DNA from: a virus
Taxonomy: Duplodnaviria > Caudoviricetes
Length of the DNA stretch: 64,000 nucleotides
Reading direction: 5' to 3' (one strand)
IMG/VR virus record: IMGVR_UViG_3300031993_000053
Location: 1-64,000 of that record
The notes under the pieces are model-generated. The model was not told the origin of the DNA. It did not search any database and saw only the letters and a list, made by a program, of their open reading frames with translations. Each line of letters begins with the position of its first letter. Position 1 is the stretch's first letter. This document shows, piece by piece, positions 1,907 through 31,022 of the stretch. The position numbers were made by a program, and so were the translations under genes.

Positions 1907-2382
1907 GTAAATATACGATCTATTCTAATGGAACAATCCATGACGATAATTATGATTCATGGGTTAAACCATATCAAAATAATCAAGGAGAGCAACTCAT
2001 AAAGTTATTTGTTAATAATCGATATGTTCAGCTGTATCTTCATGAAACAATTGCACAGTTATTTATGCCAAATTATAATCCAAAGCTACGAACGGTACAT
2101 CTGGATGGTAATAAGTTAAACAATGACATTTCAAATTTAATTCAAAAAGAAGCTGCAGTAATTACTAGGGAAGAAAAAGCGGCTAGTTTACCGAACTACG
2201 CAGTTACATCCTATAATCCATATGACATGTCAACAATTAACTTCGCATCGCTCGATGAGGCTGCATTATATATTGTGTCAATTGGAAAAGAAGATGATCT
2301 GGTAAAAGCCAAGTTAAACATATTTAATGCTACAGATGATAGGTCTAAGACGGCTTACGATTGTAAGTGGAATAGTATATAA
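1888..2382 (+). CDS. HNH homing endonuclease (HNH_3-type with NUMOD1-like C-terminus)
   Basis: LHETIAQLF...HLDGNKLNNDISNL; C-terminal FASLDEAA...KTAYDCKW. Confidence 0.8.
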   Translation: MESRKIGKYTIYSNGTIHDDNYDSWVKPYQNNQGEQLIKLFVNNRYVQLYLHETIAQLFMPNYNPKLRTVHLDGNKLNNDISNLIQKEAAVITREEKAASLPNYAVTSYNPYDMSTINFASLDEAALYIVSIGKEDDLVKAKLNIFNATDDRSKTAYDCKWNSI

Positions 2383-2383
2383 T
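2348..2383 (+). promoter_or_regulatory. phage promoter class AACGGCTT-N20/21-TATAAT (variant AGACGGCTT)
   Basis: ACGGCTT, 21 nt spacer, TATAAT at 2378-2383, upstream of RBS and ORF 2417. Confidence 0.6.
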
Positions 2384-2416
2384 ATTAATATAATAAAGAA
2401 AGGTTAGGTAAGAAAG

Positions 2417-2596
2417 ATGGAAAAGATTTTTATTGTAGTTGCAGATGGCCAAGTCCAAAAAATTCTAAGCAAAGATGATTTAGAAATCGAAATTTTAGAT
2501 TTCGATAGTTGTTTTAGTGAAGATGAAGAAGAATCTCTTGCAGATTATTTAGAAGATTTAGAAGACAACAAATCATTAAAAATTATAGGGGTGTAA
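2417..2596 (+). CDS. small acidic hypothetical protein (59 aa)
   Basis: read manually: MEKIFIVVADGQVQKILSKDDLEIEILDFD...; RBS agaaaggt upstream. Confidence 0.65.
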   Translation: MEKIFIVVADGQVQKILSKDDLEIEILDFDSCFSEDEEESLADYLEDLEDNKSLKIIGV

Positions 2597-2598
2597 TA

Positions 2599-2793
2599 AT
2601 GGAACGAGAAGAAATCGAACAATTACAAAAATTATTAATTAAGTTACGCAAAAGAAGAATTGAAGTTTTAAAACGATCAGACTCTGGAATTGAATCATAT
2701 CCAGATGATGTAGTTTATGAGATCGATGACTATTATAAAGTTGTTGAATCATGCGATAATCTATTGGATGCTTTGGATTGTATAGTATGCTAA
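2599..2793 (+). CDS. hypothetical protein
   Basis: ORF track, tightly packed operon. Confidence 0.6.
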   Translation: MEREEIEQLQKLLIKLRKRRIEVLKRSDSGIESYPDDVVYEIDDYYKVVESCDNLLDALDCIVC

Positions 2794-2963
2794 GAAAAAT
2801 TTATATGAAAAAGATAAATAAAATCATTGCACCTTATACAAATGATTTTACTATAGTTGATTTTTTGACCTGGGTTTTGCCAGATATGTCTACAAAAGAA
2901 GTAATTAAATATTATTACAATACTAAAAGAGAAATTAAGGAAGGAATATTAACTAATGATTGA
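2778..2963 (+). CDS. hypothetical protein (true start probably 2787 or 2805)
   Basis: ORF track. Confidence 0.45.
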   Translation: MYSMLRKIYMKKINKIIAPYTNDFTIVDFLTWVLPDMSTKEVIKYYYNTKREIKEGILTND

Positions 2964-3120
2964 TTTGCTTAATGACAAAAAGACAAATAAGGACGATCCT
3001 AAGACTCCTTTACCAAATGCTACTAAAACAGTTACTGTAAGGGGCCCTAAAATCGGTGATGTTAAAACAGTTATTATTGATGCAAATGGGCATATTAGAA
3101 TCAAGGAAGGAGAATTTTAA
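2956..3120 (+). CDS. hypothetical protein (54 aa)
   Basis: read manually: MIDLLNDKKTNKDDPKTPLPN...; aaggaa RBS, abuts next gene. Confidence 0.55.
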   Translation: MIDLLNDKKTNKDDPKTPLPNATKTVTVRGPKIGDVKTVIIDANGHIRIKEGEF

Positions 3121-3540
3121 ATGAGAGATTTTAATGTAGTTACAAAAAATTTAGATAAGATCAACAAATTGGGATGGTACGCAGAAGCTTCTGATAAAGA
3201 TTCAGACTGGGTGCTATTAACTTTCACTCCTCATGGAAGAAGAGTTTACTTAACTTTGTCTAATGAGGATTTCTTGGATAACTTAGCAGATGTTATTGAT
3301 GATTTTAGTACAGATGATTATATGCATCAAGAAGTGTTAGTATGCGAAAAGAAAAATATCAAGCCTAAATATTCAGAAATTTTATTAGATGCCAAATGGT
3401 CATTTACTCAAATTCTAACTTTGTATAATGAGCTAAAAGGTATCGATGGATTCCATGATGATAATGACTTACAGGATGACGAATGTGAACAGCCAGACAC
3501 CCGAAAGAAAAGTAAAGAATCAGATAAACAAACAGATTAA
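3121..3540 (+). CDS. hypothetical phage protein
   Basis: ORF track; aaggag RBS. Confidence 0.7.
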   Translation: MRDFNVVTKNLDKINKLGWYAEASDKDSDWVLLTFTPHGRRVYLTLSNEDFLDNLADVIDDFSTDDYMHQEVLVCEKKNIKPKYSEILLDAKWSFTQILTLYNELKGIDGFHDDNDLQDDECEQPDTRKKSKESDKQTD

Positions 3541-15075: not shown

Positions 15076-15098
15076 CTTTAAAATGAAAGGAATAAAAT

Positions 15099-15671
15099 AT
15101 GGGAAATGAATTGAAGCGAACTAAATTAGGTGAATGGTTATTTAATTCAGTAAATAAAGTGAGTCTTTATATTGCATATCATAAAGTATTATTTTATATT
15201 TTATCATATACATGGGGACTAATTACAACACTATTTGGTTGGATTGTTTATTTATTTTTAAGAATATTTTTTAAAAATAAAATTCAATTAAAAGGAAAAT
15301 TTTTTACAGCAAGATATATAATGTTATTTGATGAATGGGGTGGTCTTGAACTTGGCACAAATTTTATATTAGCTGGTAATATGGGAAAATATTTTACCGA
15401 GCATACAAAGTGTCATGAACTCGGCCACACTTATCAAAATGCGGCCCTCGGGCCCTTTGCTATAATATTTATCTTTATTCCTTCTGTTATACAATATTGG
15501 ATTCAGCGACTTAGAAAAGATCAATCTAAGAATAAGCCTTATGATTTAATTTGGTTTGAAGGTTCAGCAACTTATATTGGTGAAACTTTATTATCAAATT
15601 TAGAGCATAAAGATTATCATTATTATAATGAGCAATATCAATTCAATAACAATTATGGAGCAAATATATGA
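15099..15671 (+). CDS. membrane protein with HExxH metallopeptidase-like motif
   Basis: N-terminal hydrophobic helix, CHELGHTYQ, second hydrophobic segment, downstream FEGSA. Confidence 0.7.
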   Translation: MGNELKRTKLGEWLFNSVNKVSLYIAYHKVLFYILSYTWGLITTLFGWIVYLFLRIFFKNKIQLKGKFFTARYIMLFDEWGGLELGTNFILAGNMGKYFTEHTKCHELGHTYQNAALGPFAIIFIFIPSVIQYWIQRLRKDQSKNKPYDLIWFEGSATYIGETLLSNLEHKDYHYYNEQYQFNNNYGANI

Positions 15672-28184: not shown

Positions 28185-28202
28185 ACTATTTATATAAAGC
28201 CA

Positions 28203-28231
28203 TTTACAAATTTGATAAAACATGATATAAT
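28203..28231 (+). promoter_or_regulatory. sigma70-type promoter TTTACA-N17-TATAAT
   Basis: direct reading, with TG extension. Confidence 0.75.
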
Positions 28232-28240
28232 ATTTATATA

Positions 28241-28340
28241 GCCAAGACACAATTAATAAATAAAGCTTTAATTATAGCATATTATGTGAATGTGTCTTGG
28301 CGGATAAAACCATATAATATGCTATCATTAAAGCTTTATT
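28241..28340 (+). ncRNA. leader RNA with crossed A-B-A'-B' complementarity
   Basis: 28241-28251 pairs with 28291-28301; 28259-28287 pairs with 28312-28340. Confidence 0.55.
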
Positions 28341-28370: not shown

Positions 28371-29216
28371 ATGGAAAAAAATGGTTGCTACGTTTATAAA
28401 CATACTTGTATAATTACTGGAAAATCATATATTGGTTGGTGTTCAAGAAATCCAAAATATCGTTGGGGTAAAAATGGTTCAAATTATTTAGTAAAAAGTG
28501 GGGATAGATTATTTGACCATAAAAAATTTGCTCCTGCAATTTTAAAATATGGATGGAATAATTTTACACATGATATACTATTTTATAATCTTACTGAAAA
28601 AGAAGCATTAGAAAAAGAAAAAGAAATGATAATAAAATATGATTCTTTTAAAAATGGTTATAATAGCACTCTTGGTGGTGATGGTAGTACAGGTAGAAAT
28701 CATACAGAAGAATCTAAAAATAAAGTATCTGCAACAAAACTTAAATCGAGTAAAATTATTTATTGTTATAATAAATTTGGTGAATTAGTTTGCGCTATGA
28801 AAGGTTATAAACAAATTGCAAAATATTTAAATTTACCAAGCGGAGGAATTGCTGATTGTTGTATAAAAGTTAAAGACCAACATAATTCACATAGAACAGC
28901 ATATGGATATGTATTTGCAAATATAAAATTAACTAAAAATGAAATCAAAAAACGATATGAAAGTTATAAAAAGAAATTTGATTGTATTTATATGTATGAT
29001 ATTATTAGTGAAAAATTAATAAATAAATTTTATTCCTATGAAGAAGCGATTAAAAATTCTAATATATGTAGAAGTAGTATATCAGGGTGTTGTAATGGTA
29101 GAACTCGTTTTGTAAAAAATTATATTTTTTCATTTAAAGAATTATCTAAAAATGAATTATTATTAAGAAAAAAATATTTTAATATAAAACATAAAAGGGA
29201 GTTGAATAATTATTGA
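28371..29216 (+). mobile_element. free-standing GIY-YIG homing endonuclease gene with NUMOD-type DNA-binding repeats
   Basis: CYVYKHT...KSYIGW...RW...AILKYGWNNF...E...GYN..GG; two C-terminal I..CC....(TAY/V)..Y.F repeats. Confidence 0.9.
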
Positions 29217-31022
29217 ATTTAATTATCTATGATTTCGAAGTGTTTAAACGAGCGTGTTTGCTAGGAACAATTATAGTAAAAGAAACGGGAGAAGAAAAAT
29301 TATTTCAAACATGGGATTTAAATACGATCAAACAATTTTATTTAGATTATAAAGATGATTCTATTTTTGTTGGATGGAATAGTAAATATTATGATGATTT
29401 AATTTTAGAAGCAATTATTAAAAATAAAGATCCATTTGAAATATCTAAAAAAATTATCGAAAATCATGAATCATTGTGGTGTAATTTAAAATTTTATACA
29501 TATGATGTTATGAATACTGGATTTGCTAGCCAGATATCATTAAAATTAACTGAACTTATATCAGGCGATTCTGTTGAAACAACAGAAGTTGATTTTAATC
29601 TTGATAGGGATTTAACGGAAGAAGAAAAAAAATTAACTGAAAAATATAACCAAGCTGATTTAAAAAAGACCTTTTATAATTTTAAAAAAATATATGATCG
29701 TTTTGAATTAAGACTTGGAATTATTAATGATTGGAATCTTAATTTAATGAAATGTTTAAACATGACTGGTGCTCAAATAGCAGCAGAAGTGCTTCAAGCA
29801 AAAAAAGATCCATCATTAGAATTTAAACCAGTCAAACCAATTTTATATGATAATTTACAAGTTGAAAATAAACAGGCTTTAAATTATTATTTAGAAGAAA
29901 AATTTAGAATTGGTAACTATTTTGAAACAATAAAAATTGGAAATGCTGAGTTAACTCTTGGCGCAGGAGGCTTACACCAAGCCATTAAGAAGTGTTATTA
30001 TGACCGCTTAATGTACTTGGATGTGCGGCTTCGGCCGCAAATGAGTTAGCGGATATTATAATTTAATAGAAATTAATTTTGATTTGTTTTCAAGAACTAT
30101 CTCAGAAGAAGGCAAACGTCGTTATAAAATGATGTATGATCAACAAATAGAACTTAAAAAAATTAATCCAGATTCACCTAAGCGTAAACAATTTAAAACA
30201 ATTTTGTTATCTGTTTTTGGTGCACAATCTTTTGAGGGATCTGCATTTTATGACCCATATATTGGTAAATTAATTCCAATAACAGGCGAATTATTTATGA
30301 TTGACTTTCTTGAAAAAATTCACCATTTATGTACAATAGTTCAAACAAACTCTGATGGTGCAATGATTAAACCTAATTCTGATGAAGCTGAAAAAGAAAT
30401 ATTAAATATTTTAAAAAGTTGGCTAGATCGAACAAAGTTTGTAATTAAACCAAAATATATTTATGACCTTGTACAAAGAGATGTCAATAACTATGTTTAT
30501 AGAGATGAAAAAGGAAATCTTGAAGTTAAGGGTGAAGCATTAAAAAATTATAATTTTGATGATAAAGAATATTCAGCAGGAACAATATTTAATTGTAAAG
30601 AGCCTTCAATAATTGCTAAAGGTGTTGTTGATTATTTAATGTATGATATATCACCTGAAGAAACTGTTGATAAATATAAAGAAGATTTAAGATTATTTCA
30701 ATATGCTTGTAAAAAAGGTGGATATAATTATTTAACATATGATACTGTTTATTATCCATCGCGAGAAACTAGTTCATATGAAATACAAAGCCCGAGTCGT
30801 GTTTTTGCTTATAATTCTAATACTGAAGCTGGTATGGTTTATAAGCACGGTATAAATAAAAAATCTGGTAAAATATCTCAAGCTAAAGTATCTAATTTAC
30901 CAGATAATGTATTTATTTATAATGATAGTATTATTGGAAAGTATGAAGAATTAAAAGATAAAATCGATTGGCAATATTATGTTGATCGTATATATGAAAA
31001 AATAGAAAATTTTATATCATAA
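29213..31022 (+). CDS. family B DNA polymerase, interrupted by a 22-nt insert (30023-30047) in motif A
   Basis: Exo motifs YDFE, GWNSKYYD; rejoined motif A YLDV|SGYYN; motif B KRKQFKTILLSVFG; motif C QTNSDG; DVNNY. Confidence 0.88.
30023..30047 (+). other. putative ribosomal bypass element: GTG take-off, TGCGGC-TTCG-GCCGCA hairpin, GTT landing
   Basis: removing exactly 22 nt restores D-V-S-G-Y-Y-N; downstream frame opens at 30045 right after a TGA. Confidence 0.7.

Follow-up and report, generated by a model that had tools for sequence, protein, structure and literature searches.

A 22-nucleotide insert in motif A of a rumen phage family B DNA polymerase gene is most likely a translational bypass element

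The DNA analysed here, referred to as the window, is the first 64 kb of the 73.5-kb virus record IMGVR_UViG_3300031993_000053, from an uncultured rumen phage; the record has a GC content of 28% and is rated complete. The window carries a single gene for a family B DNA polymerase, split into two open reading frames (ORFs) at 29213-30049 and 30045-31022. The reading frame is lost within catalytic motif A, at 22 nucleotides (nt) that, on comparison with related genes, most likely act as a translational bypass ('hop') element; the phage has no other DNA polymerase gene. All features of the locus described below lie on the plus strand. The N-terminal part of the polymerase (29213..30025) extends from a TTG start to the proposed take-off Val and comprises the exonuclease domain and the palm strand up to the catalytic Asp. 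The C-terminal part (30048..31022) resumes at AGC (Ser) and contains the rest of motif A, including the steric-gate Tyr, followed by motifs B and C and the thumb. The two parts are 66-84% and 63-88% identical to their relatives, respectively.

The identity of the split gene was established from profile, structure and motif comparisons. The PHROG 1252 'DNA polymerase' profile (663 positions) is matched by the N-terminal ORF over positions 53-343 and by the C-terminal ORF over positions 356-651. The Pfam search of both halves gave no family at E 0.01, PolB models included. For the uninterrupted relative in locus L001, an AlphaFold model (pLDDT 91) was compared by Foldseek with known structures, and the KOD, Tgo, 9°N and Pfu polymerases and human Pol alpha were each returned with probability 1.00. 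Motif A reads DVSGYYN in the window and DVASLYPS or DVSSYYPS in distant members (canonical DxxSLYPS), motif B is KTILLSVFG and motif C is NSDG or NTDG; the Exo I, II and III motifs of an N-terminal 3'-5' exonuclease are readable in the translation of the N-terminal part. Fold, exonuclease and motifs A, B and C are those of a family B polymerase, and the 'PolB motif A' named in the original prediction, which was made from the window's letters alone, was borne out by the PHROG 1252 match, the fold match and the motif of the distant members. The genome contains no PolA, no DnaE and no second PHROG 1252 copy beyond the two halves. By blastn, the polymerase gene has no match among 50,697 phage records, and tblastn recovers only relatives at 27-29% identity, annotated 'DNA polymerase'. 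Bins of metagenome-assembled genomes holding relatives at ~47% identity are labelled Erysipelotrichaceae, Clostridia and Bacteroides, a match too loose for naming a host.

At the junction, the upstream ORF ends M-Y-L-D-V(GTG 30023-25)-R(CGG)-L-R-P-Q-M-S-TAG(30047-49). The +1 frame has a stop, TGA, at 30042-44, after which it continues V(GTT 30045-47)-S-G-Y-Y-N-L-I-E-I-N-F-D-L-F-S-R as far as 31022, so that two stops surround the proposed landing site (30042..30049), one closing the landing frame and the other ending the take-off frame. The original prediction had read both frames, their stops and the GTT opening in exactly this way. The interruption lies one codon 3' of the catalytic Asp and four codons 5' of an invariant Tyr, which aligns with the steric-gate position. 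In three relatives (L001, L002 and L003, with C-half identities of 70, 63 and 42%), the gene is one ORF of 588-602 amino acids (aa) carrying Y[LF]DVSGYYN. Their DNA aligns as GAT GTN TCN GGN TAT with GAT GT[22 nt]T AGC GGA TAT in the window, which has exactly 22 nt more than each of them at motif A; in the contig of a diverged relative (runs X2/X4), 722 letters stand where the window has 744. This comparison defines a coding gap of 22 nt, including the landing codon, at 30026..30047, with equivalent placings of the insert at 30023-30044, 30024-30045 and 30025-30046. Removal of exactly 22 nt thus gives the YLDVSGYYN found in continuous genes, and homologues lacking precisely these nucleotides exist, both as the original prediction had foreseen.

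The wider family was screened by comparing 164 fetched loci with the joined polymerase product. A single alignment crosses the junction in 150 of them, the remainder being accounted for by contig ends, by the interrupted group described below or by a distant lineage (L057/58/60). The screen detected no frame breaks elsewhere in the gene at any of the 164 loci outside L057/58/60, and none at other places of the gene within the window's clade. Frameshifts elsewhere, which the original prediction had named as the sign of a decaying pseudogene, appear outside that clade only in L057/58/60. In the 150 continuous relatives alignment gaps fall 5' of the Asp, and the spacing D-x-x-x-[YLF]-Y is invariant wherever an uninterrupted relative aligns credibly, with identities as low as 26%; L072 and L164 each show an apparent gap, within motif A or after it, that looks like a misalignment. 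Extra residues are therefore unlikely to be tolerated between the Asp and the Tyr. A pattern scan of viral contigs for motif A flanks separated by a gap of 5-34 nt gave 24 matches, none of which encodes this polymerase. In one short contig (L006:380-560), homology to the polymerase starts ~10 codons before motif A, after an unrelated 148-aa membrane-like ORF; this discontinuity reflects either a recombination breakpoint near a homing site or a chimeric assembly.

Codon choice and predicted structure around the insert are distinctive. The proposed take-off codon GUG (30023..30025) encodes the motif A Val next to the catalytic Asp and is the last codon collinear with the relatives; the peptide upstream of it is ordinary conserved polymerase sequence. 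It is followed in the A site by CGG (30026..30028), the rarest Arg codon, with 5 of 512 Arg codons in the genome, as the original prediction had supposed; two of the five lie inside the insert. GTG is itself rare (35 of 945 Val codons). The proposed landing codon GUU (30045..30047) is the commonest Val codon and contains the first GU dinucleotide 3' of the take-off codon, and GUG and GUU are readable by one U34 tRNA(Val). The only tRNA encoded in the window is a tRNA-Met, so that no phage tRNA was found there to serve a hop. Between the two codons a hairpin, UGCGGC-UUCG-GCCGCA (30024..30039, arms 30024-29/30034-39), is predicted in both the minimum free energy and the centroid folds. Folded alone it reaches -11.2 kcal/mol, with a 6-bp stem and a UUCG loop, and the U and G of the take-off GUG would form its base, in agreement with the stem and tetraloop originally described. 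The 14-nt core of the hairpin occurs once in the window, compared with 0.08 occurrences expected by chance. Outer helices are predicted at 30004-08/30048-52 and 30015-19/30042-46, again from a single sequence. A CGC codon in an outer helix was considered as evidence of co-evolution and rejected: the CGC is also present in L005, which lacks the partner arm.

The genome contains 11 short GC islands, and the insert is the sole one at a junction of two reading frames. The idea of a dispersed family of such elements, like the bypass elements (byps) of yeast mitochondria, was rejected, the hairpin core being single-copy and the other GC islands being in frame or intergenic. As a separate observation, a GC-rich palindrome, GCGGCCCTCGGGCC, is found at 15439-15457, inside a putative stop-to-stop ORF (15096-15671) whose frame is unbroken.

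The N half alone, used as a query against protein databases, retrieved other N halves that stop at the same motif, and these lead to three further interrupted alleles. The allele of the P0002 phage, found in two assemblies with identical junctions (L005 and L085), has an insert of 5 nt, GT[CCGGT]T, in the Val codon: one frame reads GAC GTC CGG TTT CGG GAT and the other GTT TCG GGA TAC TAT AAT. In L007, a single Logan contig, the sequence GAC GTT TCC TGA ATT CTG GTT ATT holds an insert of 8 nt, TC[CTGAATTC]T, in the Ser codon. The third allele, that of the P0003 phage, is known from proteins only, on three ~70-kb contigs (one in ENA, ERZ28633346, plus Logan): its N half ends YLDVS-stop, its C half is called 29 nt downstream of the N half, at MINYDL, and its insert of ~14 nt is deduced from the gene coordinates and the conserved protein length. 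The inserts of 22, 5, 8 and ~14 nt are all placed within the same 4 nt of a gene 1.8 kb long. Where DNA is available, in three alleles, the take-off and landing codons (GUG/GUU, GUC/GUU and UCC/UCU) are synonymous and readable by one tRNA, and the first cognate dinucleotide downstream of take-off belongs to the landing codon. The codon after take-off is rare or a stop: CGG in the window, CGG at the same place in L005 and UGA in L007; in the P0003 phage a stop follows YLDVS.

In a tree of C halves, the four interrupted alleles fall within one seven-lineage clade (support 100/100), where they occupy at least three branches and are mixed with uninterrupted lineages. As sister lineages, the window pairs with L005 (97/96) and L007 with the uninterrupted L002 (100/99); P0011 (P0003 phage) stands apart, and L001 and the L006/L165 lineage are also inside the clade. 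As the tree stands, this pattern needs several gains or several clean losses of inserts. The inserts of the window and L005 agree over their first 12 positions (GTN CGG YTT CGG), and the interruption is therefore most likely older than the split between these two phages. The window allele equals the 5-nt allele plus 17 nt, from which come the second arm of the hairpin, the TGA and the new landing site GTT-AGC; it seems to have been elaborated from the sister phage's allele.

The two halves of the gene bear the marks of selection. Between the window and L005, the ratio of non-synonymous to synonymous substitution rates (dN/dS) is 0.153 for the N half (dS 0.75) and 0.165 for the C half (dS 0.61), and neither half contains a further stop or frameshift. 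With uninterrupted relatives the ratios are mostly 0.24-0.38, and that of the L002-L007 pair is 0.185. By this measure, both halves are under purifying selection between two interrupted phages. Over the 27 codons after landing, the window and L005 differ by nine synonymous and four non-synonymous codon changes, and the first start codon in the landing frame of L005 is codon 28. The window has its first start-like codon in that frame at codon 13, a TTG that no Shine-Dalgarno sequence precedes, and L007 has it at codon 8. Constraint on the codons after landing and the late position of the start codons together indicate that this stretch is translated in the landing frame without initiation of its own. 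The tails of the take-off frame, RLRPQMS in the window and RFRDTIIL in L005, are unrelated and not conserved.

These data bear on the possibility that the polymerase gene is dead, the window being a defective or recently hit variant in which the insert is a repair scar left by an endonuclease and replication relies on helper or host polymerases. The break does fall within a catalytic motif, a 2-nt repeat stands on either side of the insert, a pattern that a staggered cut and filler DNA could produce, and metagenome assemblies can capture defective genomes. Yet both halves are intact and have remained under purifying selection over a dS of ~0.7 between two interrupted phages, and the landing frame is constrained from the landing codon onward. 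Moreover, interrupted alleles recur in independent samples and assemblies (L005 and L085; three contigs of the P0003 phage; three of the L165 lineage described below), the clade is free of breaks elsewhere in the gene by the joined-product screen, and the genome offers no other polymerase. We consider a dead gene quite improbable. The same data make it very improbable that the two ORFs yield two polypeptides, an N half ending in YLDVRLRPQMS and an internally started C half, that assemble non-covalently. Split polymerases and split topoisomerases (T4 genes 39/60) are known, and two long ORFs do exist here. But the landing site has neither a start codon nor a Shine-Dalgarno sequence, initiation at codons 13 (window), 28 (L005) or 8 (L007) would delete the conserved SGYYN with the steric-gate Tyr, and the catalytic Asp and the Tyr four residues further on would have to reside on separate chains.

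The relation between the two frames differs among the alleles: it is +1 for the 22-nt insert and +2 for the inserts of 5, 8 and ~14 nt. It thus changes from +2 to +1 between sister alleles, and therefore no single dedicated +1 or -1 signal explains both; on these comparisons, the difference favours a hop that is independent of frame. A conventional +1 frameshift in the window, by reading AGU-UAG-C as AGU then AGC, or at AUG-A-GUU as in Ty3, would give a full-length polymerase with RLRPQMS or RLRPQMV added. Shifty-stop +1 frameshifting is well established (RF2), and the gap between TGA 30042-44 and TAG 30047-49 leaves such a site, with a stop in the A site. However, the tRNA(Ser) on AGU cannot re-pair on GUU, which is what a shifty stop involves. 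The product would carry seven added residues, yet no credibly aligned uninterrupted relative varies between the Asp and the YY. Nor would the alleles share a mechanism, those of 5, 8 and ~14 nt needing +2 or -1, and the tails that would become part of the proteins are not conserved. We regard +1 frameshifting in the window as unlikely.

A frame break of another kind occurs in the L165 lineage, where one extra T is present in the Exo I motif D-F-E (codons 7-11, GAT TTT TGA AGT GTT), at L165:1251-1290, L166:1223- and L167:1181-. Here UUU is followed by a UGA stop and UUU is again available in the +1 frame, identically in three independent assemblies. The site is, on its codons, the same take-off rule at another catalytic motif; an alternative is a restart at the next GTG, with loss of Exo I. 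The sequence UUU-UGA(-A) also has the feature of programmed +1 frameshifting of the RF2/shifty-stop type, and this plain +1 site lends the frameshift explanation some support. The L165 lineage had been considered a counter-example to the association described next, with an endonuclease present and motif A intact, and this was withdrawn once the 1-nt Exo I break was found.

The gene directly upstream of the polymerase (28371..29216, 281 aa) is assigned, from its sequence matches, to the free-standing GIY-YIG homing endonucleases. Its product matches the homing-endonuclease families PHROG 314, 7168 and 5123 (E 3e-21 to 4e-10), YVY...YIG is readable in it, and homologues carry PF01541 (GIY-YIG), PF07453 and PF22083, including NUMOD domains; the Pfam search of the window's own endonuclease gave no match at E 0.01. 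The gene is placed between dUTPase and polymerase, and in L001-L003 there is no endonuclease at this position and the dUTPase adjoins the polymerase. The TGA of the endonuclease overlaps the TTG start of the polymerase (TTGA, 29213-29216), which would allow translational coupling of the two. L001 and L005, with no endonuclease at that position, have an ATG start, and L002 a TTG start.

Homologues of this endonuclease accompany the other frame breaks. The P0003 phage has one (P0058, 66% identity) at the same position, L165, L166 and L167 have one (P0059, 55%) directly upstream of the polymerase, and the phage with the 5-nt allele has one (38%) between thyA and dUTPase. Among the lineages with a broken frame, all four for which upstream DNA is known have a GIY-YIG gene upstream of the polymerase; none of the 118 continuous loci whose upstream flank extends to 1.5 kb or more has one. 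Upstream of the endonuclease gene itself, a conserved non-coding block (window 28200-28340 and L165:90-240) contains promoter-like boxes, TTTACAAAT...TGATATAAT, and then a long inverted repeat, GCCAAGA...TCTTGGCGGATAA; shared by both phages, the block travels with the endonuclease gene and may serve as that gene's own promoter and leader.

Distant relatives of higher GC content carry a much larger insertion in the same codon. In L057, L058 and L060, GAT GT is separated from T TGT GCA TAT TAT of motif A by ~844 nt that include a GIY-YIG ORF (L058:3156-3999, with the same arrangement in the other two); in L058 the 5' exon ends in U and the insert in G. A homologous arrangement, a conserved non-coding 5' part followed by a GIY-YIG ORF, is found at L199:1043-1710, and the read-through tail, D[VI]A-LTxWGN, is the same at the end of several other distant N halves. 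Because distant relatives have GIY-YIG insertions in this same Val codon, the motif A Val codon is, from the alignments, a recurrent homing site in this polymerase family. Other distant N fragments (P0225, P0304, P0233, P0261 and P0007) stop at motif C (...LIQ, before NTDG) with the tail LTxWLN, and its likeness to LTxWGN suggests a related insertion element at a second catalytic motif. The three L057/58/60 contigs, from different samples, also share a second, unexplained frame change ~125 nt upstream of the Val-codon insertion; in L058 it is at 2932-3029, where the exonuclease part (2253-3029) gives way to a GGLHGA segment (2932-3180) and the sequence is rich in purines (GAAGAAG...).

A large GIY-YIG insertion at the site of the 22-nt insert raises the question of whether the latter is likewise removed before translation, by splicing or editing, since the large one may be a self-splicing intron. 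That the long insertions of L058 and L199 are group I introns is a guess; the Rfam group I intron models gave no match to them at E 1. No known self-splicing intron is anywhere near as short as inserts of 22, 8 and 5 nt, and Rfam finds nothing in them. An assembly artefact is opposed by the different inserts at the same site, which come from other samples and assemblers, and by the Logan assembly of the probable source run, which is identical over 29400-30700 at a k-mer depth of 13.5 and is probably built from the same reads as the window. Removal of the 22 nt before translation, or their origin in assembly, is in our judgement extremely improbable.

Some form of recoding in this gene is highly probable, and we put at roughly 0.6 the probability that the full-length polymerase is made by a ribosomal hop from GUG to GUU, as set out in the following. 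The ribosome would decode up to the Val codon GUG (30023-25) and stall with CGG in the A site, a codon hardly used by the phage and presumably poorly served by host tRNA. The UUCG hairpin, beginning inside the take-off codon, could, as in T4 gene 60, fold at the A site or within it. Peptidyl-tRNA(Val) would then release GUG, the mRNA would slide by 22 nt and GUU (30045-47) would serve as the landing codon, giving the conserved ...YLDV-SGYYN... and the junction peptide ...LMYLDVSGYYNLIEINFDLFSR. The insert would persist most likely by interrupting the target of the homing endonuclease in the most conserved DNA of the gene while leaving the protein unchanged, and would thereby parallel the mobA/gene 60 cassette, though it is short and not homologous to it. 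The hop from GUG to GUU is the part of the original prediction that keeps a qualified standing: it has gained comparative evidence, from further alleles that follow the same rule, and the hop itself is deduced from these sequences.

Several observations weigh against this hop. The fold of the 101-nt context is unexceptional relative to shuffled sequences (z = -1.44), the hairpin is found in one sequence only, and the 5- and 8-nt alleles have no strong structure. The codons GUG and GUU are synonymous, not identical. There is no gene 60-like GAG 6 nt 5' of the landing codon; the sequence 5' of the landing GUU is GCCGCAAAUGA, and the sole GAG there overlaps the landing codon. Short hops studied so far were inefficient, and no RNA runs carrying the window sequence are listed. 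The argument from purifying selection presumes common ancestry of the window and L005 inserts. The closest positional homologues of the window endonuclease accompany breaks at two different motifs, motif A and Exo I. Finally, the 2-nt repeats that flank the inserts could have arisen as scars when a staggered endonuclease cut was repaired, and not through selection for landing codons; such scars might merely have been filtered by selection for decodability.

A broader scheme can be proposed more tentatively, at a little under even odds. In this clade of gut and rumen phages, pressure from homing endonucleases would repeatedly have planted frame-breaking inserts of 1-22 nt in the catalytic motifs of the family B polymerase, all decoded by one frame-independent rule: leave the codon that precedes a stop or a near-unused codon, and re-pair at the first cognate codon. 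The window allele would then be a snapshot of a simple hop evolving into a gene 60-like bypass.

Natural programmed bypassing is established, in the literature searched, only for T4 gene 60 with its homologues and for the mitochondria of one yeast group. The T4 gene 60 bypass is described as lying within an element of the homing endonuclease MobA, with homologues in Topo2L genes (Huang 1988; Bonocora 2011), and the insert reportedly breaks the endonuclease target without changing the protein (Bonocora and co-workers). Gene 60-type cassettes are said to occur 'exclusively' in Topo2L genes of myoviruses, a polymerase never being mentioned (Manning and Atkins, bioRxiv 10.1101/2022.08.31.505936); this is in line with the original prediction, which knew of no such case in a PolB gene, and with the literature searched. 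The cassettes have in common a take-off codon that lies within a stem-loop and is followed by a stop or hungry codon, a landing codon matched to it, and a linked endonuclease. Further characteristics of the gene 60 type are conserved CTE/NTE extensions, a gap of ~50 nt, a Shine-Dalgarno-like GAG ~6 nt 5' of the landing codon and a nascent-peptide signal that acts in the exit tunnel. Like gene 60, the window shows a frame-breaking non-coding insert in an essential, highly conserved phage replication gene, a take-off codon in the 5' side of a (here predicted) UUCG-looped stem and followed by a slow codon, a landing codon cognate for the same tRNA, a linked homing-endonuclease gene and insert-free alleles in related genomes. 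Unlike gene 60, the host gene encodes a family B polymerase and not a topoisomerase (Topo2L), the gap is 22 nt versus 50, the A-site codon is the sense codon CGG versus UAG and the codon pair is GUG/GUU versus GGA/GGA. The endonuclease is of the GIY-YIG type and free-standing upstream, the target gene is not split by it, and sister alleles of 5, 8 and ~14 nt are without comparable structure. Because gene, length and endonuclease type differ, the GAG 6 nt before landing is missing and no sequence homology is detectable, the window element is, by sequence, not a member of the T4 gene 60 cassette family.

Three other systems invite comparison. The mitochondrial byps of Magnusiomyces capitatus, 27-55 nt long and numbering 81 per genome, spread like GC clusters (Lang 2014). 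The window shares with them a short GC-rich hairpin insert in an AT-rich genome, a poorly decoded codon after take-off and take-off and landing codons that are matched (synonymous in the window), and differs in that its insert is single-copy and its remaining GC islands lie away from frame junctions. Short hops over a slow codon in Escherichia coli, which were engineered or incidental and inefficient, likewise involve frame-independent re-pairing a few nt downstream at a stop or starved A-site codon; by analogy they would be the best model for the 5- and 8-nt sister alleles, the difference being that the phage sites lie in an essential gene and would be maintained by selection in natural phages. 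The third system concerns the protection of a target gene. In cyanophages, the free-standing endonuclease F-CphI and the psbA intron reportedly cooperate in collaborative homing, as described in 2009 by Zeng, Bonocora and Shub. There too a free-standing endonuclease lies beside its presumed target, and insertion at the intron-insertion site would destroy the recognition site; the protecting insertion is a self-splicing intron removed from RNA, whereas here it would be 22 nt left for the ribosome to deal with.

What is new in the window is a probable bypass in an unrelated essential gene, non-homologous to gene 60, together with a natural series of gap lengths. The series is graded at one site (5, 8, ~14 and 22 nt, with 1 nt at another motif) and includes members with and without a hairpin; with the insert-free relatives and the linked endonucleases, it would constitute a ready mutational set for defining the minimal needs of a ribosome hop. 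It outlines a route by which a short hop could evolve into a structured bypass, and it would be a second system where such an insert may protect against a homing endonuclease. Polymerases of this sort are broken up by gene callers into pairs of hypothetical proteins, and so recoded genes of this kind are probably under-counted in viromes.

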